64,000 nucleotides of DNA from Isurus oxyrinchus (taxonomy: Eukaryota): assembly GCA_026770705.1 (NCBI GenBank), contig JANJGN010000021.1, positions 98,022,001 to 98,086,000 on the forward strand. The letters are read 5' to 3'. Below the pieces are notes generated by a model. That model saw only the letters and a list, made by a program, of their open reading frames with translations, was not told the DNA's origin and did no database searches. Shown piece after piece: positions 2,930 through 61,170 of the stretch (position 1 is the first letter of the stretch; the number at the start of each line of letters is the position of its first letter). The translations under genes and the position numbers were made by a program.

Positions 2930-3348
2930 CAGTGCAACCTCTTGAAGGGCCATCTCTTACTTGTTCATGTTGTTCTTTTCAGAGTGCTTACCTTTTTTCT
3001 GTTTTATCACATTCTGCTTTCTTACCTTTGCTACTTTCAGCACGTTCTTTAGCCCTTACCACTGTCATTAACTCTCCCTTTGTCTTTTTGTTCATGACAT
3101 CGTTATCATTTTTTCCTCTGCCCCCGCCTATATCGTTGGTCTTCTATCCAGCCTTGCCTGCTCCACCCACCTTAAACAGAATAATTTCATCACAGTTCTA
3201 TTTCTCTCCAGCTCTGAAGGAGGATGACACGGACTGTAAACGTCAACTCTGGTTTTCTCTCCACAGATGCTGTCACACCTGCTGAGATTTTGTAGCACTT
3301 TCTGTTTTTGTTTCAGATTTCCTGCATATAACGTATTTTGCTTTTACT
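2930..3348 (+). mobile_element. Decayed Neptune-type PLE 3' UTR/pseudo-LTR remnant
   Basis: 3210-3348 (ctctgaagga..aaacgtcaactct..ccacagatgctg..cctgctgag..tttctgtttttgtttcagatttcc..gtattttgctttta) parallels 11131-11232 plus the tail seen at 8262-8293. Confidence 0.75.
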
Positions 3349-3829
3349 TTTCACCCCACCCCTGTGCAAGTTACAGGAAACTGAGTCATCAAAAGAGCCT
3401 CTGAATCAGAGGAGAGATCTCTTCGTGAGCATGTTCGTCAGTCCACGCAAAAGTGCAGTACCTGCAGTCAATAGACGTTGAACTGACTCTTGTCTCAGCT
3501 ACAGATTTAATGCATGTCAATACATGCTTGCACCTATAAGAAAACGGATTCCCCAGCCTCTCGTAAATCTCGCCCTGAAGGCGTATTTTCTTCCGGCTTA
3601 TTATTGCAGTGAGATACATTGTTAATTAGTTTAACTGCCTCTTGAAATTTTATTTAAATTAGGCGGGCGGGTCCCCGCATCCTTGAAACTGCCTGCGTAC
3701 GGTATTATAGAAAAGTAACTTGATGATGCCATAAAAGGCGCCCCCCGTGGTCATCTCGCCTTATTATGCGCTCCAGAAACTCTCCCGATCTTGGAATGTA
3801 GAATTCGGCAACATGAAATATTTTTGGTG

Positions 3830-7479: not shown

Positions 7480-8261
7480 GCTCCTGGATCTCCTGAATCT
7501 TTTCATTAAACACACCTTGATGTTTCCTGTTGGAGACACAAAGAACATCCGTGCAAGTGCTGGTAATGGTAGACTTAAGGGCAGACAAGGCACAGGGGCA
7601 TCTATGGTCCTAGTCCATTGCGCATCACCAGATTGCTTGTGAGGCACTGCCTCAATAGGTCTTTCAGAGCAGAGTCCTTTCGTCCAAAGACATTGATTTT
7701 CCTGCGGCAGCACTTTTAGGCCAGAATTATGAAATTAATCGCTTGGATAAGGCGATGGTTGGCCAAGCAGTCATCAGATCATGTTATGGCACGAGTGATA
7801 TGACCATTCTTGCAGTCCCTCACTCAAACGGTGATGTCGTCAAACAGGTGTCAATGTTAGGTGCGAGGGTGTTAGCATGAAGTATGTTTTTTTTCTCTCT
7901 GATGACAAATGGTGTTCATCCTGATAATACAATGTTCTCCACATTTCGTCAGAAGGAGAACGCCGTTTGCGTCAACTTTCCCTACATCTTCCATGCCAAT
8001 CAAGTTTGTCCAGAGTTTTGCGCCCCTCCAAACTCTGAGATTGAAGTCACCGAGATAAATTAGCTTGTCTCCCTTTCGGATACGGGGCAACAAGTTATCA
8101 ATGCTAAAGTCGAATTCCTCGTTGGCCCCATAATCTGCTTCGACAGTTGTGGCTTAGGCACTTATGGCAGTCGTCGACTGCCTCCGGGCTAGGGTGCGCC
8201 TTCGGAAAATGAGATGTTCGTTTACCCCAGAAGAAAGCTCGCTAAGATGGTCAAATAGTTA
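7480..8261 (-). mobile_element. Decayed RTE-clade LINE, APE endonuclease region (downstream half, split by the PLE insertion)
   Basis: Minus translation SGVNEHLIFRRRTLARRQSTTAISA*ATT..LPRIRKGDKLIYLGDFNLRV..GKVDANGVLLLTKCGEH (ORF 7872-8093): APE GDFN motif in RTE context. Confidence 0.85.
8248..8261 (+). repeat. Left target-site duplication tggtcaaatagtta
   Basis: Identical 14-mer recurs at 11230-11243; the first 3 nt (tgg) overlap the element end, so the true TSD is 11-14 bp. Confidence 0.9.
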
Positions 8262-8359
8262 TAAAAACAAAGAAAACTGCGGATGCTGGAAATCCAAAAC
8301 AAAAACAGAATTACCTGGAAAAACTCAGCAGGTCTGGCAGCATCAGCGGAGAAGAAAAG

Positions 8360-8398
8360 AGTTGACATTTCGAGTCCTCATGACCCTTCGACAGAATT
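8360..8398 (-). ncRNA. Minimal type I hammerhead-like motif, left-arm copy (two extra mutations)
   Basis: Minus strand AAUU CUGUCGA A GGGUC AUGAG GACUC GAAAUGUC AACU; the ACGU palindrome is lost by CpG decay. Confidence 0.5.
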
Positions 8399-8790
8399 TG
8401 ATATCGAGTCCAAGAAAGAGTTGAAATATAAGCTGGTTTAAGTGTGTGTGTGGGGGGGCGGAGAGAGAGAGAGAGAAACAGAGGTGCTTGTGTAGACAAA
8501 CAAGCAGTGATAGAAGCAGATCATCAAAAGATGTCAGTGACAATGGTACAAAAGAACACATAGGTGTTAAAGTTAAAGTTGGTGATATTATCTAAACGAA
8601 TGTGCTAATTAAGAATAGATGGTAGGGCACTCAAGGTACAGCTCTAGTGGGGGTGGGGGGAGCATAAAAGATTTTAAAATATTTAAAAATAATGGAAATA
8701 GGTGGGAAAAGAAAAATCTATAAAATTTATAGGGAAAAAAAAGGGGAAAAAAGGGGGAAACAGAAAGGGGGTGGGGATGGGGGAGGGAGC

Positions 8791-9537
8791 TCACGACCTA
8801 AAGTTATTGAATTCAATATTCAGACCGGAAGGCTGTAAGGTGCCTAGTCGGAAGATGAGGTGTTGTTCCTCCAGTTTGCGTTGGGCTTCACTGGAACAAT
8901 GCAGTAAGCCAAGGACAGACATGTGGGCAAGAGAGCAGGGTGGAGTGTTAAAATGGCAAGCGACAGGGAGGTTTGGGTCATTCTTGCGGACAGACCGCAG
9001 GTGTTCTGCAAAGCGGTCGCCCAGTTTACGTTTGGTCTCTCCAATGTAGAGGAGACCACATTGGGAGCAACGAATGCAGTAGACTAAGTTGGGGGAAATG
9101 CAAGTGAAATGCTGCTTCACTTGAAAGGAGTGTTTGGGCCCTTGGATGGTGAGGAGAGAGGAAGTGAAGGGGCAGGTGTTACATCTTTTGCGTGGGCATG
9201 GGGTGGTGCCATAGGAGGGGGTTGAGGAGTAGGGGGTGATGGAGGAGTGGACCAGGGTGTCCCGGAGGGAGCGATCCCTATGGAATGCCGATAAGGGGGG
9301 TGAAGGGAAGATGTGTTTGGTGGTGGCATCATGCTGGAGTTGGCGGAAATGGCGGAGGATGATCCTTTGAATGCGGAGGCTGGTGGGGTGATAAGTGAGG
9401 ACAAGGGGGACCCTATCATGTTTCTGGGAGGGAGGAGAAGGCGTGAGGGCGGATGCGTGGGAGATGGGCCGGACACGGTTGAGGGCCCTGTCAACGACCG
9501 TCGGTGGAAAACCTCGGTTTAGGAAGAAGGAGAACAT
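8791..9537 (-). CDS. PLE ORF fragment: RT thumb/linker plus intact GIY-YIG endonuclease (left arm), 248 aa
   Basis: Open frame near-identical to the C-terminal 248 aa of ORF 9395-10735; VY..YIGETKR..DRFAEH..ACHFN..KLEEQ..GLN. Confidence 0.8.
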   Translation of the reverse strand: MFSFFLNRGFPPTVVDRALNRVRPISHASALTPSPPSQKHDRVPLVLTYHPTSLRIQRIILRHFRQLQHDATTKHIFPSPPLSAFHRDRSLRDTLVHSSITPYSSTPSYGTTPCPRKRCNTCPFTSSLLTIQGPKHSFQVKQHFTCISPNLVYCIRCSQCGLLYIGETKRKLGDRFAEHLRSVRKNDPNLPVACHFNTPPCSLAHMSVLGLLHCSSEAQRKLEEQHLIFRLGTLQPSGLNIEFNNFRS

Positions 9538-10735
9538 GTCAGAGGAACCGTTTTTGAAGGTAGCATCATCGGAACAGATGCGACGAAGGCATCTCTTTAT
9601 GGGATATGTGGAACATTCCTTGTTGCAGTCCTACCCCGGCCCCCTTCCACAACTTTTTCTCCGGTACATCGATGATTACTTCGGTGCCGCTTCATGCTCT
9701 CGTCGGGACTTGGAAAAATTTATTAATTTTGCTTCCAATCTCCACCCCTCCATCATTTTCACGTGGTCCATCTCTGACACTTCCCTTCCCTTCCTTGACC
9801 TCTCTGTCTCAATCTCTGGTGATAGACTGTCCACCAATATCCATTACAAACCCACCGACTCCCACAGCTACCTCGACTACAGCTCCTCACACCCCGCTTC
9901 CTGTAAGGACTCCATCCCATTCTCCCAGTTCCTTCGCCTTCGTCGCATCTGTTCCGATGATGCTACCTTCAAAAACGGTTCCTCTGACATGTCCTCCTTC
10001 TTCCTTAACCGAGGTTTTCCACCGACGGTCGTTGACAGGGCCCTCAACCGTGTCCGGCCCATCTCCCACGCATCCGCCCTCACGCCTTCTCCTCCCTCCC
10101 AGAAACATGATAGGGTCCCCCTTGTCCTCACTTATCACCCCACCAGCCTCCGCATTCAAAGGATCATCCTCCGCCATTTCCGCCAACTCCAGCATGATGC
10201 CACCACCAAACACATCTTCCCTTCACCCCCCTTATCGGCATTCCGTAGGGATCGCTCCCTCCGGGACACCCTGATCCACTCCTCCATCACCCCCTACTCC
10301 TCAACCCCCTCCTATGGCACCACCCCATGCCCACGCAAAAGATGTAACACCTGCCCCTTCACTTCCTCTCTCCTCACCGTCCAAGGGCCCAAACACTCCT
10401 TTCAAGTGAAGCAGCATTTCACTTGCATTTCCCCCAACTTAGTCTACTGCATTCGTTGCTCCCAATGTGGTCTCCTCTACATTGGAGAGACCAAACGTAA
10501 ACTGGGCGACCGCTTTGCAGAACACCTGCGGTCTGTCCGCAAGAATGACCCAAACCTCCCTGTCGCTTGCCATTTTAACACTCCACCCTGCTCTCTTGCC
10601 CACATGTCTGTCCTTGGCTTACTGCATTGTTCCAGTGAAGCCCAACGCAAACTGGAGGAACAACACCTCATCTTCCGACTAGGCACCTTACAGCCTTCCG
10701 GTCTGAATATTGAATTCAATAACTTTAGGTCGTGA
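9395..10735 (+). CDS. PLE RT (C-terminal half) plus GIY-YIG endonuclease; N-terminal ~65 codons are antisense sequence from the inverted arm
   Basis: From 9591: LFMGYVEH (end of motif B), FLRYIDDYF (motif C), LPFLDLSV, YKPTDSHSYLDYSSSHP, then Cys linker and GIY-YIG. Track start 9395 is GTG; first ATG is 9464. RT motif A is absent. Confidence 0.9.
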   Translation: MRTRGTLSCFWEGGEGVRADAWEMGRTRLRALSTTVGGKPRFRKKENMSEEPFLKVASSEQMRRRHLFMGYVEHSLLQSYPGPLPQLFLRYIDDYFGAASCSRRDLEKFINFASNLHPSIIFTWSISDTSLPFLDLSVSISGDRLSTNIHYKPTDSHSYLDYSSSHPASCKDSIPFSQFLRLRRICSDDATFKNGSSDMSSFFLNRGFPPTVVDRALNRVRPISHASALTPSPPSQKHDRVPLVLTYHPTSLRIQRIILRHFRQLQHDATTKHIFPSPPLSAFRRDRSLRDTLIHSSITPYSSTPSYGTTPCPRKRCNTCPFTSSLLTVQGPKHSFQVKQHFTCISPNLVYCIRCSQCGLLYIGETKRKLGDRFAEHLRSVRKNDPNLPVACHFNTPPCSLAHMSVLGLLHCSSEAQRKLEEQHLIFRLGTLQPSGLNIEFNNFRS

Positions 10736-11127
10736 GCTCCCTCCCCCATCCCCACCCCCTTTCTGTTTCCCCCTTTTTTCCCCTTTTTTTCCCTATAAAT
10801 TTTATAGATTTTTCTTTTCCCACCTATTTCCATTATTTTTAAATATTTTAACATCTTTTATGCTCCCCCCACCCCCACTAGAGCTGTACCTTGAGTGCCC
10901 TACCATCTATTCTTAATTAGCACATTCGTTTAGATAATATCACCAACTTTAACTTTAACACCTATGTGTTCTTTTGTACCATTGTCACTGACATCTTTTG
11001 ATGATCTGCTTCTATCACTGCTTGTTTGTCTACACAAGCACCTCTGTCTCTCTCTCTCTCTCTCCGCCCCCCCACACACACACCTTAAACCAGCTTATAT
11101 TTCAACTCTTTCTTGGACTCGAAATCA

Positions 11128-11166
11128 AGTTCTGTCGAAGGGTCATGAGGACTCGAAACGTCAACT
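11128..11166 (+). ncRNA. Minimal type I hammerhead-like ribozyme motif in the PLE pseudo-LTR
   Basis: AGUU-CUGUCGA-A-GGGUC AUGAG GACUC-GAAAC-GUC-AACU: stem I AGUU/AACU, stem II GGGUC/GACUC, palindromic ACGU in place of stem III, predicted cut after C11162. Core deviates from CUGANGA. Confidence 0.65.
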
Positions 11167-11229
11167 CTTTTCTTCTCCGCCGATGCTGCCAGACCTGCTG
11201 AGTTTTTCCAGGTAATTCTGTTTTTGTTT

Positions 11230-11243
11230 TGGTCAAATAGTTA
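11230..11243 (+). repeat. Right target-site duplication tggtcaaatagtta
   Basis: Identical to 8248-8261. Confidence 0.9.
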
Positions 11244-11420
11244 GTTTGAATTTATGGTAAAGCCAACCCCATACAATTCCGTTCTTGTTATGTTTTACCT
11301 TTCTAGAAGGTGTATCCACCACATTCTTCCTTGAGCTGACCTTCTCCAGTCCACCATGTCTAAATCAGGGCAGTGATATTGATGTCACACTGCTAGGACT
11401 CCCCGGGTAAGATAGCATTG
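11244..11420 (-). mobile_element. Decayed RTE LINE endonuclease N-terminal part (continuation of 7480-8261)
   Basis: Minus translation DINITALI*TWWTGEGQLKEECGGYTF..KGK resembles the RTE segment DIAALSETR..GEGQL.E.GGYTFFW.GK, which normally lies just upstream of the 8261 segment. Confidence 0.8.
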
Positions 11421-11645
11421 TGGCGTTGTGATTTATCACTGCGTGGGGCTCTAATTGAGAGTCGTGATGTTTCAGGTCCAGAAATGCATTTTAAGGAGGT
11501 TGGAAATCCCTGTGAGTGGATTATTTTAACTTGGATCCGCCATTGCAACCAAACACCATACAGTCCTGGTAGAGCAAGGTATTCACCTAATGACAGGTAT
11601 AGCCAAGACGGTTCAAACCATATTCCGCTGTGTCATTGGGAGCTA

Positions 11646-11701
11646 ACACGCACGCACACGCACACACACACAGACACACACACACACACACACACACACA
11701 C
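11646..11701. repeat. (CA)n microsatellite
   Basis: Visible CA dinucleotide run with interruptions. Confidence 0.95.
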
Positions 11702-22056: not shown

Positions 22057-24694
22057 TTAATTCGTGAAGGCATTTAGATTAAGCAGAGACGTCATTAAAT
22101 TCAGGGGACTCTTAATCAGATTATTTAGCTCATCTCTAAATTTCCCCTGGGATACTGCATAAATAAATGTGTTTGTGCAGGAACTCAGCACGCTGAGCAT
22201 ATACTCTGATTGTTCCAAAATAGAGAAAGGTGAGCTGTAATTTTCTTCTAAATACTGAACATCTACAAAGTGTACACAAACATAAGACATAACGGTTATC
22301 ATCCATAGGAGGATAAAACTTCCAGATATAGCGAGCAACAAAACAATAGATTTTCTGCGGTTTTCCATTTCTGGATCGCTGTTTTTCTCACAGTTATTTC
22401 TTCCTCGGAGGCCCCGCCTCACTCTGCTTGCTAACAAAATATGACTTATGGTCAAAGCATTCAGTAGTAATATCAAAACAAATGGATGTGATGGGGTTAA
22501 AATTGTTCTCAGCCAAATTAATGCAGCCCATATCCGTGAGCTGCAGAAGCTTTCTTTTACGTGGCAGGACCACGGTATGCTGTCAACTATTTTGTGAGGC
22601 ACCTAAACAAAGTAGACAGGAACACTTGGCAAAACGCTCAGCGAGGATACCGCTGCAAGAATAATAGCCGCAGTTCTTCCTGTGTAGTATTTTGTTCGCA
22701 CTTTTTTGGCAACAAATGGTCACAAATCGATCAAACATGAAACTTACAGTAAACCACACAGAACAATCAATCGAAACAAAAATCAGGGCAAGATTGAAAC
22801 TACAAATCGATGTGTAATTCAATAATGAATACGGAAAATAAGCATCTTTAATCTCATATAGAATTACATCAAATATTAGAACCAATAGGTCAGCCGTTGT
22901 CATGGCCAGCAAGTAACGGGTGACGCATTTGGGGAGACCGCAATTTCCACGAGACAGGCCGACAATTGTCAGAAAATTAGCTCCAAAGGGAGGGAAATGA
23001 ATTTAATGGGTTTGTGTTATCTGCGAGGATGATAAACCATCAGTTTAATTGTATGAGCATTCATTTATGAATATTTTGCCAAGTTTTAAGTAAGCTCTTC
23101 TGAAGTAGTTTTACATTAATCAAATTCCTAAAAGTAGTGTAATCAGGCATCAGACCGATTTTAGATGTCGACCAATAATATTCGCCATATACTTGAATAT
23201 AGAATGACAGCAGTGGTCTCTAAAAACCAATATTTCTCCAATCTCTCAGTTTACGGCTGGCGAGTTACGCTGAAATTTCCTCATAATGTAGATTATTTCT
23301 CTGCCATCAAACACATGCTCTAATTTCGACCCTATTGCCCTTAATTGGAAGGGTATTCGATGGGGTTGTATTAATATCGCAGATCCTCAGTGCAAATTAA
23401 TCCTATCTGCATTCTGTCCCCTCCAGCAGTAAATAATCATTTTTTTAACCGGTAAACGTTGTGGGAATCATTAGAAACATTAAAGCAACTTGACTAGGAT
23501 TAATGCAACATGTGAGACTTTAATTTCCTGGCACACCATATCAAGTGAGGATTTTGATGGAACTTGATTAACATTCTTCATCAAGCAAGCTCCCCACAAC
23601 CCTCTCCAATTTCCACAATTACCGTATCTGCATAATCAGCTCTGCAGATGACATTGTGAGCAATCTTTAACTTTGAAGTTATGTCATTATACAACTTTTA
23701 GAGGTCATTGAATTAGAACTAGAAACACTATTAAACTGAACCATTCGCTCAGATGCATACAGATAATACCACAGATAAGAACTGAGTGTGGCGATATTGG
23801 CATGCATGGTGAAAGGCTTAATATCGTGGGGTATTTTCAAGGTTAATGCCATGTATACTAATTTAGTGGAGCTGTCAGGGATCCAGTCTTGACCATTTAG
23901 TCATATATGTCAATGAATTTGCAGGTTATCAAGCGAGTTTGGACTTTCCAGCTGCAGTCTCAATGCCCTTGCATATCTCATGTTTCTTGGCTCAAAGCCA
24001 AACTACAAAACGAAGTACAAGGTCTCGATCATGATTTTGCTCGTAATCCCGCTTGCTTAAGTCTCCAAGAGGACTGCAAGTTCTACAGACTGTAAACGAG
24101 TCTGCAAGAGGAAGCTTGAGCCCTGATTGGCATGCTCCAGTCGAAGTCTGGACTCTAGGCAGCCAGTTGAGATCGGTCGCCAGACTGAGCATCTTCACAG
24201 AATCAGAAATTTGTAGATCTGCCAGGGCTGCATTGTCCATAAATTATGGGCTCTTGCATCAAGTCTGAGCAACTGTTCTGGGCTGACAATTTAAAGGTTA
24301 CATATATTATCTCGGCCTTCAAATGCCGTAAAGCAGCCTGTAAGATTAGGGGAACTCTTCCTACTTAACGCTAGGAAACAGTAGCCAATACCTCTCTGAA
24401 ATAATATTGCTCAGCAAGAAATTTGCATATTTCTAGATTTTGCAATTCATAAAGAAAAAAACATCTGGCCATTTTTTAACCACCCTGAAAATTTGAAGGA
24501 ACGCCTGACTTAACTGATAGCAAACAACAATGACAGCTTCAAATGCGCCAGAAGAAATACATTTATTTTCTGTGAAAGAGCCAGCGCAGCAATGTGATAT
24601 CAATAACTGTGCATCTTGACTTAGCTGGGACACCAATAGCAGCTAAAATAGAATAGTAAATATCTGACACCTGAGAAATAATTGGCCATTCCAT
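22057..24694 (-). pseudogene. GPR139/GPR142-like class A GPCR pseudogene A (exon 1 24694-24625; exon 2 22980-22057)
   Basis: Exon 1 MEWPIISQVSDIYYSILAAIGVP; exon 2 NFLTIVGLSRGNCGLPKCVTRYLLAMTTADLL..FDRFVTICCQK..LSSCTNTFIYAVSQGKFR. Lesions: donor reads CTAAGT instead of GTAAGT (24624), +1 frameshift in the A6 run (22702-22707), TAG at 22603-22605. Confidence 0.92.
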
Positions 24695-37712: not shown

Positions 37713-38629
37713 CTATGACTGTACATATTTGAATAACTTAATAATTAAGTGAAAAGGGCATTTATTCGTACGTTTTAGCTCTATTCTAAATTTCGTCTGC
37801 GCCACTGCATAAATGAATGTATTTGTGCAGGAACTGAAAAGCTGTACCATATATCCAGAGTGCTGCCTTACGTCAGGAGTGTGGCTGTAGTCATTAACAA
37901 AATGCTGAGCATCGGTAACTTTTACAAATACATAATGTACAGTAGCTATCATCCAAAGCAATATAAAACTCGCCGATATGGTCACAAGTAAAATTATGGA
38001 TTTTCTTCGATTCTGTTCCTCTGGATCATATTTATTTTCGGTCATGTTGCTGCGTCGTAGAGCCTTGCGGATTTTACTCGCCATTACAATGTGTCTGATT
38101 TCCAGAGCGTTAAACAATAAAATCAAAAACAATGGTGCGAATGGAGTTAAAATGCTATCCATCCAGCAATATGTTATCCACGCGTGTACAGTACAGAAAA
38201 TTGGTTTTGAAGTGCAATACCATGATGCACCGTTAACTATTTACCCAGGCATAAATACAAAAAACACAGGTGCGTTCTCTAAAAGGCAGAACACGCATAC
38301 TGTTGAGATAGCAATGGCGGCCATTTGTTCAGTGTAATATTTGACTCTTAGCTTCTGGCAACAAATGGCCAAAAATCGATGAAAGGTGAAAGACACCGTT
38401 AATCAGACAGAACAATCAATAGCTGAAAAACCAAGAATATGTTTCAGTTTGCACACGGTAGTGAAGTTCAAGAAGGAATTTGGGAAATAGATGCCATTAA
38501 GCTTATATAGTATTATATTGAAAATCAGGACCAGTAGATCGGCTACTGCCATGACCATTAAATAACGAGTGATGAAGTTGGAGAGGCCACACTTTCCACG
38601 AGTGAGAATCACTTTCGTCAATAAACTGG
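37713..38629 (-). pseudogene. GPR139/GPR142-like GPCR pseudogene B, exon 2
   Basis: Acceptor ttttttgcag at 38630-38631; SLLTKVILTRGKCGLSNFITRYLMVMAVADLL..DCSV*LTVSFTFHRFLAICCQKL..FSSCTNTFIYAVAQTKFR; in-frame TGA 38403-38405 and TAA 38241-38243; DRF changed to HRF. Confidence 0.92.
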
Positions 38630-40570: not shown

Positions 40571-40821
40571 AAACAAAAGCAAAATTTGCTGTAAAAACTC
40601 AGCAGGCCTGACAGCAACTGTGGAGAGGAAGACAGGGACAACGCTTCGAGTCCGTATGACTCTTTATCAGAACAGGTGTCCTGTTGCTCTGATTAAGAAT
40701 CATACAGTCTCGAAGCGTTGGCTCTGTCTTCCTCTCCACAGGTGCTGTCAGACATGCTGAGTTTTTCCAGCAATGATTGTTTTTGATTCAGATTTCGACC
40801 AGCCGCAGTATTTTGCTTTTA
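40571..40821. mobile_element. Miniature palindromic PLE pseudo-LTR element (non-coding)
   Basis: 40571-40676 is an imperfect reverse complement of ~40680-40786; both arms resemble 11128-11232; only the right arm carries the tail (to 40821). Confidence 0.85.
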
Positions 40822-45242: not shown

Positions 45243-47730
45243 AGATCATAGAGTCATGGAGTTCTACAACACATAAAAAATCCCTTCGATCCATCGATTC
45301 TGCGCCGGTCAAACAAGTACCCAACTATTTTAATCCCATTTTACAGCAGTAGCCCCATAGCATTGTATGCTATGGCATCACAAGTGCACATTCAAATACC
45401 TCTTAAATGTTCTGAGGGTTACTGCCTCTGCCACCCTTTTAGGCAGTGAGTTCCACATCCCCACCATGCTCTGGCTGAAAAATTCTTTCTCACATACCCT
45501 CTAAGCCTCCTGCCCCTTACGTTAAATCTATGACCTCCTGGTTATTTATCACTCCACCAAGGGTAAAAGTTCCTTCCTGTCTACCCCATCTAAACGCCTC
45601 ATAATTTTATACACTTCGATCATGTGCCCCTGTCCTCTGCTCCAGGAAAAATAACCCCAGTCCATCAAATCTTTCCTCATAACTAAAACTATCCTGCCCA
45701 GGCACCATTCTGGTAAGCTTCATCTGCACTCCCTGCAATGCAATCGCACCCTTTTTATAACCCGATTTCCAGAACTGAAGGTAATAATCTAGCTGTGGCC
45801 TTACCAGCCTTTTATGCAGTTCTGGCATAACCTCCCTGCTCTTATCATCTATACCTTGGTTAATAAAGACAAATATCCTATATGCCTTCTTAACCACCTT
45901 AACTACTTGTCCTGCTAACTTAAGGGGCTGGTGCACATTTACACCAAGGTCCCTTCGGTTCTCAGTACTCCCCAGGGTCCTACCATTCATCATGTATTCC
46001 GGTGCCTTTTCCGCCCTGCGCAAGTGCATCTCCTCACACTTATCCGGATTAAATTCAATTTGCCACTGATCAGCCCATCTGACTAGCCCAGCTATATCCT
46101 CCTGTAATCAAAGGCTATGCTCCTCACTATTTACCACCCTACCAATTTTCATGTCCACCACAAACATACTGATTAATCCTCCTAAATTCAAGCCTCAATC
46201 GTTTATGTATACCACAAACAGCAAGGGGCCCAAAACCGAACTGTGTGGACCCCCATTGGACACAAGCATCCAGTCACAAAAACACGCATCGACATTCACA
46301 TTCTGCTTCCTGCGACTCAGCCAATCCTGAATCCAATTTGCCAAATTGCCTAGGATCCCATGGGCTCTTACCTTCGTTATCAGTCTCCCATGTGGGCCCT
46401 TATCAAAAGCCTTGCTGAAGTCCAAGTAGACCATATTAAATGTGTTGCCCTCATCTACACACATGGTAACCTCTTTGAAAAATTCAAACAAATTGGTCAG
46501 ACATGACCTCCCCTTAACAAAATCATGCTGACTGCACTTGAATAACCCCGGCCTTTCCAAGTGTGGATTAATTCTGTCCCTCAGAATTGCTCCCAATAGC
46601 CGTTCCACCACTGATGTTATACCGACTGGTCTGTAGTTTCTTGGTTTATCCCTTCTTCCCTTCCTGAAGAACGGTGCCACATTGGCTGTCCTTAAGTGCT
46701 CTGGCACGTCTCCTGTGGAGAGAGCTGTACTGAAAATTCTTGTCAGCGTCCCCTGCTACCTACTAACTTGCCTCACTCAACAGCCTATGATACATTGCAT
46801 TAGGATCTGGAGATTTATCTAATTTTAAGCCTCACAGGCCACTTACAACCTCTTCCCTTTCTATGCTATTTTCTTTCATTATATCACAGATCTTCTGCCT
46901 GATTTCCATACCAATGTCCTCTATCTCACTTGTGAATGCCAACGGAAAGTATTCATTTCGAATGCGACGTATGCCTTCAGGCTCCGTACACAAATTAACA
47001 CTATAGTCCTTAATGGGACATGTTCTTTCCCTAGTTATCTTCTTACTCTAAATGTACTTGTCCTTTATTTTACCTGCCAAATATTATTTCATGCCCACTT
47101 TTTGCTCTCCTAATTTCCCCCCTACACATTCTATCCTCCTCCAGGGCTTCCGTTGTTTTCCGCCCCCCGTTTCTGCCATAAGCCTCCACTTTTCTGTTAA
47201 TCCAGTCGTGTATATTCCTCGACAACCTGGGTTCCCTAGATTTGTTCGTCTGATCATTTGTTTTTACTGGAATATGTTGACCCTGTACTCTCCCCATTTC
47301 CTTCTTGAAGGTGACCCAATGCTCTGACGCAGGTTTACCTAAATGTAGCTGCTCCCAGTTCAATTTAGACAAATCATATCTGATATTATTACATCTGCCT
47401 TTCCCCAACTTAGAACTCTGATTTCTGGCCCTTCCTTGCCCTTTTCCATATCAACCTTGAATCTAACGGAGTTATGATCACTATCTGCAAAACGCTCTCC
47501 CATTGATTCATTTACCACTTGCTCGGCTTCATTCTCTAAAACTGATTCCAGGACAGCCTCCCTCCCTTGTAAAGCACTCGGGGTTCTAGCCTCTAATCTA
47601 CCACAATATTACTAACCCAGTTAAAGTTGGGGAAGTTGAAATCCCCCACTATTACTAACTTATTATTTTTATGCTTCTCTTAATTTTGCCTGTTATATAT
47701 GCTCTTCTATTTCCCTCTTACTGTTTGGGG
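45243..47730 (-). mobile_element. CR1 LINE, best-preserved copy (~2.5 kb: end of endonuclease, RT, 3' UTR)
   Basis: GDFNFPNFNW (~47615-47650), ANVAPFFRKG..NYRPVGITS, QHDFVKGRSCLTNL, VYLDFSKAFDKGPH, SVLGPLLFVVYIND, LVRPQLDYYLQFW; 3' ccatgactctatgatct tail. Confidence 0.95.
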
Positions 47731-52288: not shown

Positions 52289-54049
52289 TGACGAAAAATA
52301 ACTGGCTCAAACTGTCAGGACACTCACGCCCTCGATTCATTCGATATTTTCTAATATATAACTGCGCCGCTAACACAAAAGTCACACAAAATGTTTGTTC
52401 CATCTAATCAGTAACATAGAGCGACAAAGGGTGTGAACTGTTGATGGACATTTTATACTATATTCACGCCATTGTATTACGTTGGACTGATTTTATTATG
52501 TGCATCCGACACCATTCCACCTCAATGTTGCCAAGCAAGTTAAGTTCAAATTGTATCTAGAGGATTAAGTACGAAACGTCTTTTGATGACGCCCACTTCT
52601 GCCTCTATGCCACCGCTCTCGAGGCATCCAATGTTTCTTTGTTAACTGACCGTTCATATTGGTGATCGCCATAACTTTCCGTAGGTAATAATTGGGAAAA
52701 TTTAAGGCCTTATCCACAGCCCTTGCCACGATCTCTTTACTGCATTGTAGTAATTGATGTTTTATTTTATTCTGCAAAAGTTGAGAAAAAAAGTCTATTT
52801 CATGGGTAGGCATGATAACCGTGAGTATTAAAGGATCTGAAGGAGCCGTTGCATCACTCAAATTAATAATGCTAAGTAATTTAATGAGCTTTGACAGAGT
52901 AAAACAACCCACGTAAAGGTTCTTCAGATCGTCATACCCGGCATTAAGCGCATAAAAAATAATTTACAATTTTGGTTAGAAATACAAAAAAGTTCTATAT
53001 ATTCCCTTGCTTTAGTAAAGGACAATGCAAGCCGCGAATTTTGAATCTAGGGGGAAAATAGGTTTTTGTTCACAATGCAATTTTTTCTAGGCTGCAATCG
53101 TAGAATTTGTAAAAAAAAACATTTTCAGGGACCATTTAATCAATACAAGCCTAATATTAAGACCGTCCAGAATTAAGTTTCCACTAAATTGGTGTATTTG
53201 TTCTAAAGTTTAATTCCATGCTGGTTTAATGTGTTTTTATTGATTGGAAAGTAGTTCCTATTATTCATAATTAAATGTGAAGTTAGATTCCGACGACACC
53301 ATTTCAAGAATTCTGTTACCCCCCACCCCCTTCTTTCTGGCACATTTATTAATGATTGGACTTGTGTATTTCTTGTCATGTTACACACAACGCATCGGAA
53401 AATCTATAACTTACTATGATATGAACACTTTGGATAATTTATTCTTTTCTATGATAAGCGCTTGCGGAATCAAATTCATAATGTTTGTTGATGGGGCACA
53501 AATGCCTATTCCCGTTATTAAAAACATTGTTGTTGCGTGCAAACAAATTGTTTTAAAGCACACATTCTGCTCCTATGGCGGATCTGTGTTTCAAATAAGT
53601 GGAACATTCAAAATCAGTAAGCTAAACTACACAAGAGCATAAACCTGGGTTTGCCTCCTCTAACAAATCCTTGATCGGTCGTGGCTTAAATACGTTCATT
53701 TGGAACATTATTAAAGTCAGGAATGGTGTCATAAGGGCCATGTATTGTACATTCGCCTCAGAGTCATCAGTCGAAGGAAATCCGCCGTTCTTACGTGGTT
53801 AGGCCGGCTAAATTTTGTCTGGCCTATTCTCCTGAATTGTTTGGCAGATTTGGCATAAAGAATACGCATGCGTTATTTAATTGATCTATTATACTAAGTA
53901 ATGCGAAGCCGAGTTTTGTGCAAGTTCTGTGCATTTTGACTCGAAGGGCAAGCAGCAGAATAGACAGCAAAACTTCAGAAAAGAGACCAAAGAATATGGG
54001 TTAACGTCAGAAAGCAATCTATGGGAGAAATGCCATGAAACGATGTGTT

Positions 54050-55385
54050 CTTAGATGCGAAGGCAAATGCACATAAATTTATTGAGGGGCTGGCCACACA
54101 TTTTCACAATTCCTTAGATACAGGAGTTTTGCCACTGGACTGGATGACAACAAATGTCACGTGTCTGCCAAAACAAACAAAAGGAAATGCAGCATGACAG
54201 AACTGGCCATTACAGGCCAGTCAGTTCAGTTAGTGTGGTGCGAAAGATCATCACAAAAATAACTGTCGAACTTCTGCACAGTCCACCTCTGGTCATATTT
54301 TTCTTAATCGTCCAACACCTTACACGACCGGATATGACAGGGGTGTATGAATGTTATTGTAGCTGGTGGTGGAAGCATCGCTTCGCTTTGCCTATTACAT
54401 ACTGTTTCCACTTCCTAAAATGCAAGTCGAACTGTGCTGTATCTGCACTAGGATAACAACCCATTTCCAGGTATGCCTGGCACTGCTGCTGTCATCAGCT
54501 TCCGTAGTCTTCATTGAACTGAAGCAGATCAGTTGACTCAATGCAGTGAAGAATATGCTGAGTCATGGCATTGCACATTCTGTGGGATAATCTGAGGTTG
54601 TGCACTTGGAAAAGAAAAATAGCGAAGCTGGATATTATTCAAATGTAGGAAGACTGTGGAAAGATGCTGCACAGAGGGATTTGGAGGTCTTTGTGCATGA
54701 ATAAAGTTAGAATACAAGTTCAACGTGTAATAGAGCAAATGGAATGTTCGACTTTATTTCAAAGGGAATGGAGTACACAAATAGGGGATTCTTCCTAAAA
54801 CTATACAAGGCACGAATTAAACCACACCTAGAATACTGTGAGCATATGTGTTCACATTACCTGAAGAAATATACATTGGCACTAGAAGCAGTCCAGGGAA
54901 TGTTCACTAGATTGACCCAAGTTATGGAGGGATTTTCTTATCAGGAGAGGTTGAATAGGTTGGGCCTGTATTCATTCGAGTTTAGAAGAATGAGAGGGGA
55001 CCTTACTGAAACATGCAATATTCTTAGAGGTCTTGGCATGGTTGATGCTGAGAAATTGTTTCTCCATCTGGTACAGTCTAGGGCAAGGGAGCATAACCTC
55101 AGAGAAAGTGGTCGGCCATTTAAGATCACGATAAGGAGGAACTTATTCTCTCAGAGGGTAGTGAACCTGTGGAATTCTTTGCGCAGAGGGCTGTAGAGGT
55201 TTAGTCGTTAAGTACATTCAAGGTTGAGAGAGATAGTTTTTTAATTCAGTAAGGGAATGATGGTTTATCAGGAAAATGCAGAAATATATAGTTGAAGATT
55301 ACCAGATTAGCCATGATATGATTGAATAGCAGAACAAAGTCGATGTGCCGAATTACCTGCTTCTACTCCTGCGTATTATAGTCTT
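54050..55385 (+). mobile_element. Decayed CR1 LINE (RT fragment and 3' end)
   Basis: ORF 54744-55196 LYKARIKPHLEYCEH..LEAVQGMFTRL..RMRGDLTET..FSQRVVNLWNSL; HYRPVSSVSVVRKI at ~54210. Confidence 0.9.
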
Positions 55386-56599
55386 GCGGCTGAGTACAAT
55401 TCTGCGGCTGTTATGAGCTACAGCGCTTCGTGGGATTCAGTTTTAGTTGCCAGATTGATTCTGATTCGAACCTATTCTGCAAGTTGCCTCCTGCACAGTA
55501 CATAATGGATGGCATGTATAATGCACTGATGAGGCTCAACCACGAGGGTTGTGTGCTTTTGACTCCCTAAAAATATTGTCTTCAAGAGGTAGATTGTGAG
55601 CCGATGACCGGATTGTTTCAAACAATGCCCCCCGCCCTGCAGCCCCACACCCCGTACCCCCCCAACACCCCCTCCCCGCCCCCCCCCCCCCCCGCCCCTT
55701 TCTGTTTTCTCACTACCTGCCATAATCTCAGTTTATCCGGCATTTCCTTGAGTTCTCCGGAACCTTGATCGGTAGTGGTGCTACCCAGCTACTCTTCGTG
55801 ATGGACGTTCGAGTACTCCAACCAGAGTGCATTTGGCAGGCCTGGGTGTTTTGTGATTGCTTCCGCTGTCTAAGTCGATGTCGGGTTCTCCGTCCAGTCA
55901 TGTTACTTTCTGACATATGTTCGGGGTTTGGTACAGCTGTGTGGCCTTCTGAGCAATTTCAGAGGGCAGTTCGGACTCAAATGCATTGCGTTGCCCTTGG
56001 AGTCAGCTGCAGGTCTAACCATGTAAGAATGGCGTATCTCCTTCCACTGATGAATCTGAGGGGAATATATAATACATGGCCCTTATGACACCATTCTGAC
56101 TTTAACCATGGTGGTTTTTTTATAAGTACCACTGAAAATGATCGTCGCTGAATATGAGTCCACTGTAATTTCTACTATCCGACCTTTCTTCATTGAAGTC
56201 CTATGTGGCTGAGCCTGACTAATTCATGTTGGTAATGGAGGCATAGGGTATTGTTGAAGTACTAACTGAGCGTTGCGCATTTTTTAACCAAAGAGTAGGT
56301 GTTCCCGACGTCATAGCGCAACAGGGTGTAGCTGTGACGCAGCATTTGACAAACATTGACATTTTCGTTGTACTAAAGCTTTAGACTTCAGGTGAAAAGG
56401 ATAAGATCCAGCCAAGGAGACTGTGGGAAGTCAGTTTCAACATTGTCAGCTCACTGGCAAAAAATATCCAATCCACACTAGATAGAGATGTACTGTCAGA
56501 AAAACGGAAAATCTGTTTGTAACATTCATGTTGCATGTTGAAAAAAGACGAACATAGGAATAATACCTATACATGCAGTCCAGTGAGTTTTCCTCGGGG

Positions 56600-59230: not shown

Positions 59231-60299
59231 AGTCACTGATTTCCATCTCGTTGACTTTCGTCTCAGTTCCTGCTCACTTATTAAATACTCCATACCCTGT
59301 GGCAAACACTTTTAGCCATCCTCTCAGATTCATTTCCCACGTAAATCAGTTTCATTACTACACATGGATATATTACAATTTTTCAATTCATCTAAACCAT
59401 AAAACAGATTACTTTTAGCTCGGCCCCCAACAGTGCATCATGTGGCAAAACACGAATGGCACTTTCGACTTGGAAATGTCCTGTTTATACATGTTTTCTC
59501 TTATTACTCCATGACACAATTTCCTCTCCGTGTCAATATATTACCCAGAAGTCACTGTGGAAAAAGAGGGCGAAAAAGCCTGTAGAGCCGCATTGAAATC
59601 GTTTTGAAAATTCAATGAAATTAATCTAGTAGGATTCAATTTCAGTTACCTTACTTGTTGTTCAGTCAGAAAATCCAAAAGATTTGAAAAACCCTATTTT
59701 CATTTCAGAGAATAAAATATTGGTTCTGCCCAATTGTATTACGAACCCTAAGTTTGCAGTATTCCAATCTATGAATTGGAGACCACGACGACTGATCGCA
59801 ACAGCATTCTTTTTTCTCCTTTCCTACTAACTGGAATGGTTTCCTTACCTTAATACATTGTAATCCATCGGACCACTACAAATTCTAGGGAAATTTGGAA
59901 ATTTACAACAGGTTTATTCGCACTATCTGCAGGAACCCCTTTTAGATCTTTAGGTGTAAGGGTCTTGCCGTCATTCAGTCCGACTAATTTCTCCTGACAG
60001 TTATGACATTAACCTTATCGAGTTACATTTAGCGATGTAAGTTTAAGTAACGATGCAAAAACATAGCGATGCTAAAACATAATAAACATGTCGTAAATTA
60101 TGTTGATTGAAAACCTTTTAAATGACAGGCACATGTTGAACGGGTCCTGTTCCTTTTCGTGGACGGTTATCAAAACAATGTTAAGTTTCCCCTCGTGTTC
60201 AGCTTCCATGCCATTATGCTTTGTATTCAGCCGATCATCCGTCACCATTACTGACAGCTCCATCATGATGCTTTAACATGGTTACCTTCAACTTCCCTC

Positions 60300-61170
60300 C
60301 CGTTTCAGTACTACAAAGGGGCTGTACCCCCCGAAACAGACGAATACACCCCTCAGTTACCCATAACAGCCTCCCCCTTCCCCACTACATCATCGCATGC
60401 AGGTGCGCTTGTGTACTACCCGTTTCCTTTCTCACTGCCAAATGCCCCTAACAATTCTCCCAAGTGAAACAGTAATTTATTTGAAATTCTTTAAATTCAA
60501 TGCGTTGACCTCGCGCTTCACGATGTGCCTTACTCTATAATTTGCGGAACATCTGTTTCCTGATAGATTGCCTGACCTCGAGCATTCGGTTGCCTCTTAT
60601 TTGAATTATCCACCTTACCATTTTCTGCTACTCGTTTCTAGTGGAGGTCAAGACAAAGATCGAGCAAAAACACGTTATAATTCGTCCCAGCGCTCTACAG
60701 CCTTCTGGACTCCACATGGATTTCAATCGCTTTTGATCATAACCAGTGTCATTATTATGTTCTGTTTTACTTTTGCCCTTTCTTTGCATTGCTGGATTGG
60801 TCTTCCTTTTGCTTTTACTTTCACGTTACATTCACATTTATTTTCTTGTGTAGCCATTCCTGCACCATTTGGGCACAAACTTTTTTGTTTCCTTATTGCA
60901 ACATTACCTTTCCCTTTGGCTGTTGCACCATGAAACATTTTATTGATTAACCTCCTCTGCCTTCCAACTTATCTAAGAGCTTCCCTTCTCCTCCCTTTCC
61001 ACCAATAAGTAGCTCTTATGCTTCTATATTTATTCAGTTATGATGAAAGGTCACTCGAACTCAAACGTTTGCTGTGTTTCTGACGAGAGATTTTACTTAA
61101 CTTACTGGGCTTTCCAGGACAGTCTGTACATATTTCGAGGTTGCATCATCGGTCGTATTTTGATTTTGTA
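60300..61170 (+). mobile_element. Decayed Neptune-type PLE (GIY-YIG remnant and pseudo-LTR)
   Basis: SQVKQ*FI..SRCALLY..FAEHL..PDLEHSVASYLNYPP mirrors the young copy; hammerhead relic agttatgatgaaaggtc..aaacgtt at 61036-61074. Confidence 0.75.

Follow-up and report, generated by a model that had tools for sequence, protein, structure and literature searches.

A palindromic Penelope-like element (PLE), target site copies included, occupies positions 8248-11243 of the window analyzed here, a 64,000-nt stretch of contig JANJGN010000021.1 from Isurus oxyrinchus. It consists of two 5'-truncated copies head to head within one 14-nt target site duplication (TSD), probably produced by a single insertion with priming from both nicked strands of the target. 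As such, the locus is a further instance of a PLE insertion layout that has already been described. Its components, with positions counted from the first letter of the window, are as follows (RT stands for reverse transcriptase and ORF for open reading frame).

8248-8261, plus strand: left copy of the TSD, 14 nt, an exact direct repeat found twice in the window.
8262-8293, minus strand: PLE tail of 32 nt, at this end only (comparison of the arms; the tail start recurs in contigs of the family).
8294-9590, minus strand: left arm, 5'-truncated, with late RT region, zinc-finger linker, GIY-YIG endonuclease, 3' untranslated region (UTR) and pseudo-long terminal repeat (pLTR).
8357-8400, minus strand: candidate hammerhead-like motif of minimal type within the left arm, from a pairing check against the minimal hammerhead ribozyme description (available text of PMC4209133).
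8791-9588, minus strand: C-terminal ORF fragment free of stops that includes a CX4CX2C linker, a CCHH motif and a GIY-YIG domain (Pfam E 1.7e-4, slightly below the curated cut-off; alignment).
9591, no strand: inversion junction, a single base A (arm alignment, loose ends of family contigs).
9591-9935, plus strand: loop of 345 nt with the RT motif RYIDD (9662-9676) and the motifs that follow it.
9593-10735, plus strand: stop-free C-terminal ORF fragment of 380 aa with late RT, linker and GIY-YIG domain.
9936-11229, plus strand: right arm, the tail-less 3' part of the second copy (arm alignment).
11126-11169, plus strand: minimal hammerhead-like motif in the pLTR of the right arm, likewise a candidate from the pairing check (available text of PMC4209133).
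11230-11243, plus strand: right copy of the TSD, whose first 3 bases also equal the next 3 bases of the element.

On realignment, the left arm (8294-9590, minus strand) and the right arm (9936-11232, plus strand) filled 1298 columns with 11 substitutions and two single-base indels, exactly as counted by eye in the first-pass annotation, a divergence of 0.85% (95% range 0.42-1.5%). Along the locus, the order of elements is TSD, tail, left arm, junction, loop, right arm and TSD, with both element 3' ends pointing outward and each adjoining one copy of the TSD. The single TSD pair said to bracket the whole unit was confirmed as an exact 14-nt direct repeat (8248-8261 and 11230-11243) with exactly two occurrences in the window, both strands counted; when 200,000 pairs of 40-nt windows were drawn at random, only 3 had a 14-mer in common. 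The ends of the unit, in turn, had to be redrawn: the 32-nt tail (8262-8293), a continuation of the element on the minus strand without counterpart at the right end, had been overlooked, and the three bases that close the right arm as first described (11230-11232) double as the opening three of the TSD. According to the arm alignment, the tail is confined to the left copy, and the 345-nt loop, found with its RYIDD motif where it had been placed, to the right copy.

Contigs from four of 24 listed sequencing runs (X1, X2, X8 and X17) were compared with positions 9591-11640; X8 derives from a related organism, referred to as B, and X17 is guessed to be RNA. At the inversion junction (9590/9592) neither target DNA, nor a second TSD, nor a palindrome was found. 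The intervening base 9591 is an A that fits neither template, both of which predict G, and is likely a 1-nt overlap later altered at a CpG or one untemplated base. Loose ends of family contigs before 9592 were found in 116 and 57 contigs, with an agreement of 0.76-0.77.

The single TSD pair and the clean junction bear out the earlier proposal of one integration event. Two independent insertions of the same subfamily, back to back or with the second at the 5' end of the first, are very improbable: neighbouring copies are common in so abundant a family, but they would not account for one TSD pair around a junction free of target DNA and of a second TSD, and the arms are 99% alike, whereas 78% of the matching X1 contigs are less than 99% alike (a rough comparison, based on short pieces). 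Priming from both target strands, also put forward in the first pass, is the likely route; the placement of tail and loop on different arms fits it. Since each arm holds sequence absent from the other, neither was copied from the other by simple fold-back. A single cDNA that folded back and copied itself is a known outcome at breaks made by retrotransposons (available text of bioRxiv 10.1101/2024.12.14.628481), yet such a copy can hold only the content of its template, while here the tailed arm has no loop and the loop-bearing arm has no tail; a rescue would need the later deletion of exactly the right-hand tail with the TSD left whole, which makes this route extremely unlikely.

Under the proposed two-strand priming, the endonuclease would nick the two target strands 14 nt apart. 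The top-strand end would then prime at an outer RT start site, tail included, and copy approximately 1.33 kb, and the bottom-strand end would prime at an inner start site, perhaps aided by the 3 matching bases, with approximately 1.64 kb copied; the two cDNA ends would be joined with an overlap of 0-1 nt and filled in. The templates would be a pair of RNAs from one source lineage, a tandem RNA contributing two of its units, or a single RNA region used twice. Both ingredients of a two-ended model are already in print. Purified PAc, a Poseidon protein from Anolis carolinensis, cuts both strands and extends each of them, begins RT at two sites that delimit the tail and is predicted to form a dimer (available text of PMC11167929); the paired start sites and the use of both strands proposed for the present locus, as well as its AT-rich target, have their counterpart there. 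PAc differs in belonging to another clade and in that its priming was studied in vitro; its start site did not differ between strands, and the text seen does not model head-to-head insertions (PMC11167929). A two-ended model of head-to-head PLE insertion was not found set out in a title-level literature search, with most subscription papers and all supplements outside its reach.

The insertion had also been described as twin-priming-like. In L1 twin priming the second cDNA is begun at a point higher up on the RNA that also templates the first, the inverted part does not overlap the rest and nothing is duplicated. The comparison holds insofar as both target strands prime and the cDNAs meet at the inversion junction with little overlap. 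It fails in that L1 inverts a different part of the RNA, while here each of the two primers would begin at the 3' end and the same 1.3 kb was copied twice: the L1 type is defined by an inverted segment from a non-overlapping upstream part of one RNA, and the present locus instead has 1297 nt duplicated.

A total of 282,036 contigs from X1 matched 9591-11640, and the summed X1 depth amounted to millions on the element against approximately 30 on the flank (a value not to be taken as a copy number); the family is very abundant. Its 3' ends fell into two classes, one stopping at 11228-11231 and followed by unrelated DNA, the other running past 11232 into the tail, and the tail start was found as loose ends behind 11232 in 252 (X1), 319 (X2), 212 (X8) and 29 (X17) contigs. 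Among 15 joints listed (559 further ones exist), at least three connect opposite strands (9791/10245, 11127/11198 and 11128/11193), and the first of these, from X2, implies arms of approximately 1 kb in another copy. In organism B, one X8 contig of 1832 nt (depth 21.6) aligns with 11230-11640 apart from 12 differences and a single gap; its match begins at the first base of the TSD and does not extend to the element beyond, leaving 1380 unmatched letters if positions follow the record's own direction and 40 otherwise. With its single-copy depth, this contig apparently resembles an empty site.

Flank divergence from organism B was 12 of 411 positions (2.9%, range 1.5-5.1%). With arms only 0.85% apart, the insertion is therefore young, and that it has persisted with a spacer of 345 nt calls for no particular explanation; the first-pass view that persistence without collapse was noteworthy is not upheld, the insertion being apparently absent in organism B. 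Four of the 11 substitutions fall at CpG, which makes up 6.3% of sites (P = 0.004), an excess as expected for methylated genomic DNA. Coding differences comprised four nonsynonymous and one synonymous change, with 1.2 synonymous changes expected under neutrality. Selection on the two endonuclease frames was considered and rejected, as the probability of no stop after five random changes is 0.87. Most likely, the arms have drifted neutrally since insertion and the locus is a dead copy that serves no function itself.

Arm variants were compared with the family at 20 arm sites among 40 rows listed (502 further rows exist). The right arm carries the minority letter, relative to most X1 depth, at 12 of the sites listed, and the left arm carries the same letter at 10 of these 12, the remaining two being changes private to the right arm. 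Derived changes numbered at least six in the left arm and two in the right, with three not polarized; polarity was assigned partly by CpG and homologue reasoning.

Several observations weigh against one insertion primed from both strands. The minority letters in common place both arms in one subfamily and do not imply one event, and the left-skewed derived changes would also fit templates that differed beforehand. For head-to-head repeats, self-priming on an antisense template was preferred by the authors of the Adineta work (available text of PMC3846280). Read contigs bear on the right junction only; the one exact X1 contig across it (11209-11640) has an element side of 21-24 letters, less than the 31-letter bridging rule, and the match of the organism B contig covers the right flank only.

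An alternative is that the palindrome was already present in the template, as a head-to-head source transcript or an antisense self-primed intermediate, and was inserted as one 3-kb unit, with arm differences that are partly older. Antisense self-priming is the published proposal for Adineta (PMC3846280, in the text available), and the unevenness of derived changes between the arms agrees with it. Against it, the Adineta cases have a palindrome at the junction, as seen in that text, and here there is none; it would require a left end that, though no priming site, halts precisely where the tail finishes next to the TSD; and an arm divergence below that of the flanks demands no extra age. We regard this explanation as unlikely, although it ranks ahead of the other alternatives. 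An assembly or library artefact, such as a hairpin chimera, would agree with read contigs that cover the right junction only, and PLE repeats cause recognized difficulties in assemblies (PMC8557442). Such an artefact is nevertheless hardly credible: a chimera would not produce a TSD together with a one-sided tail, the arms differ at 13 positions with CpG enrichment, and run X1, possibly the source sample, contains 0.96 of the sampled words of 7800-11700.

One insertion primed from both strands also accords with published layouts. In endonuclease-bearing (EN+) PLEs, a 5'-truncated copy lies inverted at the 5' end, and one end has a tail of 30-40 bp (PMC8557442), and the present locus shows the published trio of inverted 5'-truncated copy, one-sided tail (32 nt) and TSD. 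In the available text of PMC3846280, Pen2a_Av of Adineta vaga combines an inverted pLTR with a tail of 31 bp and a TSD, and head-to-head is the most frequent arrangement. The head-to-head 5'-truncated copy, single TSD and one-sided tail are thus common to Pen2a_Av, canonical EN+ PLEs and the present locus (PMC8557442; PMC3846280, available text), which further shares with canonical EN+ PLEs a C-terminal GIY-YIG with CCHH and has a candidate for their hammerhead-like motif near the end. Unlike the canonical form, it has neither a direct tandem pLTR at the 5' end nor a full-length ORF, and unlike Pen2a_Av, with arms of 181-218 bp and a TSD of 8-10 nt as given in that text, it has arms of 1.3 kb and a TSD of 14 nt. 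Penelope of Drosophila virilis has large inverted repeats whose size varies by copy and a short terminal extension (34-bp repeats), resembling the present locus in both respects, but there a partial tandem with an active ORF is found (available text of PMC2377424).

Duplication of coding sequence in the inverted arm had been considered unusual. Among 79 distant-relative loci from metagenome contigs (drawn from the best 80 of 545 matches, many from the same few assemblies), an inverted coding piece lay upstream of the match in 5, and in 3 of the 79 (L010, L013 and L071) it included the GIY-YIG region. The long arm is therefore not special, and 3 of 79 is probably a floor, since short-read contigs often break at such repeats; together with the published layout and the other inversion joints in the family, these counts leave the claim without support. 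In L013, laid out in the same way as the present locus, the arms of approximately 600 bp are 92.7% alike and duplicate the entire endonuclease; its TSD measures 14 nt, and approximately 50 nt of extension lie on the left only. When five of the 79 loci, chosen for head-to-head arms, were checked for TSDs, exact 13-14-nt repeats were found at two (L013 and L043), L046 had a 7-mer only, L071 ended at the contig edge, and no TSD was found at L018. L071 (636-2406) has a mixed inversion, partly non-overlapping and partly duplicated, with query residues 1-57 and then 265-375 on the minus strand and 57-375 on the plus strand.

Regarding coding content, the unit had been credited with two intact GIY-YIG frames. 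Frames 9593-10735 (plus strand) and 8794-9588 (minus strand) each contain the domain (Pfam E 3e-4 and 2e-4, slightly under the curated cut-off), and their endonuclease parts are free of stops and frameshifts, but the RT is truncated in both copies. The right frame had 157 longer relatives in the protein search (best 51% identity), and all three full-length relatives scanned carried both RVT_1 and GIY-YIG. Measured against four relatives of 889-955 aa, the right frame opens with residue 514-575 and the left one with 629-692, both being without the first 58-72% of the ORF; as the RT start is missing from both copies, neither can yield a working RT. The left arm begins at LRRICS, approximately 45 residues past the FLDL motif. 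With respect to what we take to be the boundary of the RT thumb, the inverted arm duplicates the GIY-YIG endonuclease, as claimed, but only a later region beyond the RT core rather than the whole thumb. A stop-free frame of 446 aa (9395-10735; ATGs at 9464, 9536, 9578 and 9599), in which left-arm antisense is in frame with the RT fragment, was set aside as a chimeric ORF that probably arose by chance.

In an alignment of 10 sequences (A1), C289, C292, H311, H327 and R307 were invariant and E356 and N372 nearly so, and all of them are present in both arms. Assignment of the CCHH, R, H, E and N residues to catalytic roles follows PMC8557442 in part. RYIDD followed by GIY-YIG within one frame is the order of EN+ PLEs, with the N-terminal RT missing from the present copy. 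The endonuclease is C-terminal in both frames, the CX4CX2C linker occurs in both arms, and the linker-plus-GIY pattern was found in 85 of 120 relatives; 116 of the 120 carry the DKG motif, whose site lies upstream of the part retained here. A CX2-5CxxC zinc-finger-like linker between RT and endonuclease marks Neptune, is modified in Hydra and also occurs in Nematis; it is absent in the Penelope/Poseidon clade, unlike here, and Naiad combines an N-terminal endonuclease with DKA, as opposed to a C-terminal endonuclease with DKG (PMC8557442). Linker, C-terminal endonuclease and DKG therefore exclude Penelope/Poseidon, Hydra and Naiad, leaving Neptune or Nematis. The motifs agree with the original Neptune assignment, and Neptune is favoured over Nematis solely from its occurrence in vertebrates, those sampled having carried Neptune and Poseidon (available text of bioRxiv 10.64898/2026.07.22.740005), the present host being thought to be a fish. 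In phylogenies, the RT of EN+ PLEs groups with telomerase RTs (TERTs). A PDB profile search with A1 returned no TERT structure, the only match being the I-TevI endonuclease (E 0.79).

The terminal motif of each arm is a minimal hammerhead-like candidate. In the right arm (11126-11169) pairing holds for helix I (4 bp) as well as helix II (5 bp), one additional base separates positions 9 and 10.1, and an ACGU palindrome is present; in the left arm (8357-8400) helix I has a broken pair and the palindrome of helix III is altered. At core position 6, both arms have U in place of A (stems checked by hand). Rfam detected no hammerhead in 8100-11400, with only a chance small nucleolar RNA match (E 1.9), the hammerhead fold was not obtained by unconstrained folding, and a regular-expression hammerhead descriptor gave 0 matches in the window, being of no use as a test. 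Family-wide, contigs often start at 11128 after unrelated DNA (113 in X1 and 86 in X2), depth at 11109-11246 is several times that of the element body, and inversion and tandem joints gather there. We regard 11128, at the beginning of the hammerhead-like motif, as a favoured 5' boundary.

Other related PLE sequences were observed in the window. An older end palindrome (40571-40821) has 104-nt arms that are 85% alike, a 10-nt spacer and a tail at the right end only; its candidate TSD (12 nt with 2 mismatches, 40554 and 40819) is weak, being equalled by 126 of 3000 random pairs. A solo decayed 3' end with tail (3100-3350) is 73-80% alike to other copies. At 60171-61150 (plus strand) lies a decayed copy with 32-47% protein identity, a 3' UTR and a hammerhead-like motif with A at core position 6, for which no inverted partner was found. 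Elsewhere, two paralogous fragments of rhodopsin-family G protein-coupled receptors (22057-22602 and 37713-38240, minus strand; Pfam 7tm_1 E 3e-6 and 1e-5) share approximately 65% DNA identity over 840 bp. ORF fragments of a LINE-type RT, presumably CR1-like, were found at 45607-46755 and 54711-55196 (RVT_1 E 6e-14 for 46198-46755), and an inverted repeat of approximately 98 nt (53711-53808 and 56009-56105; 88%, 2.2 kb apart) has a LINE-like fragment inside.

Compatible with one insertion primed from both strands, read-through transcription could give a 1.3-kb RNA hairpin serving as a source of small interfering RNA (siRNA) or as an ADAR substrate acting on the family, a suggestion of the first-pass annotation that we consider very doubtful. 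The arms are 99% complementary and would pair if transcribed, and Penelope families yield small RNAs in Adineta and Drosophila (available text of PMC3846280). The share of A>G differences was higher in X17 (19/129) than in the DNA runs (20/407, 24/407 and 29/429), a family-wide figure; in absolute A>G counts, on the other hand, X17 did not exceed them, and it comes from another sample whose RNA nature is a guess. Changes in the arms look neutral and of CpG type, as in methylated DNA, and there is no sign of selection keeping this copy, one of many such insertions. X17 depth was 0.26 at 11247-11315 and 0 further right, which was not counted as evidence because contigs show presence and not absence. 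A literature search at title level found no relevant publication on shark Neptune elements or Penelope hairpin siRNA.

Being most likely just one of a very abundant family's dead copies, in a layout already published, the unit carries little weight as a single locus. It is nonetheless a clean data point on the formation of PLE inverted repeats, whose origin is unsettled in the literature consulted: a tail and a loop on separate arms exclude simple fold-back and fit priming from both nicked strands. In a far-reaching extension, to which we give very little credence, two-ended priming by PLEs would routinely build kilobase hairpin loci, and the present one would be read through, its double-stranded RNA feeding siRNA or ADAR pathways and silencing its own family; if that were true, PLE insertion chemistry would create a brake on its own family.

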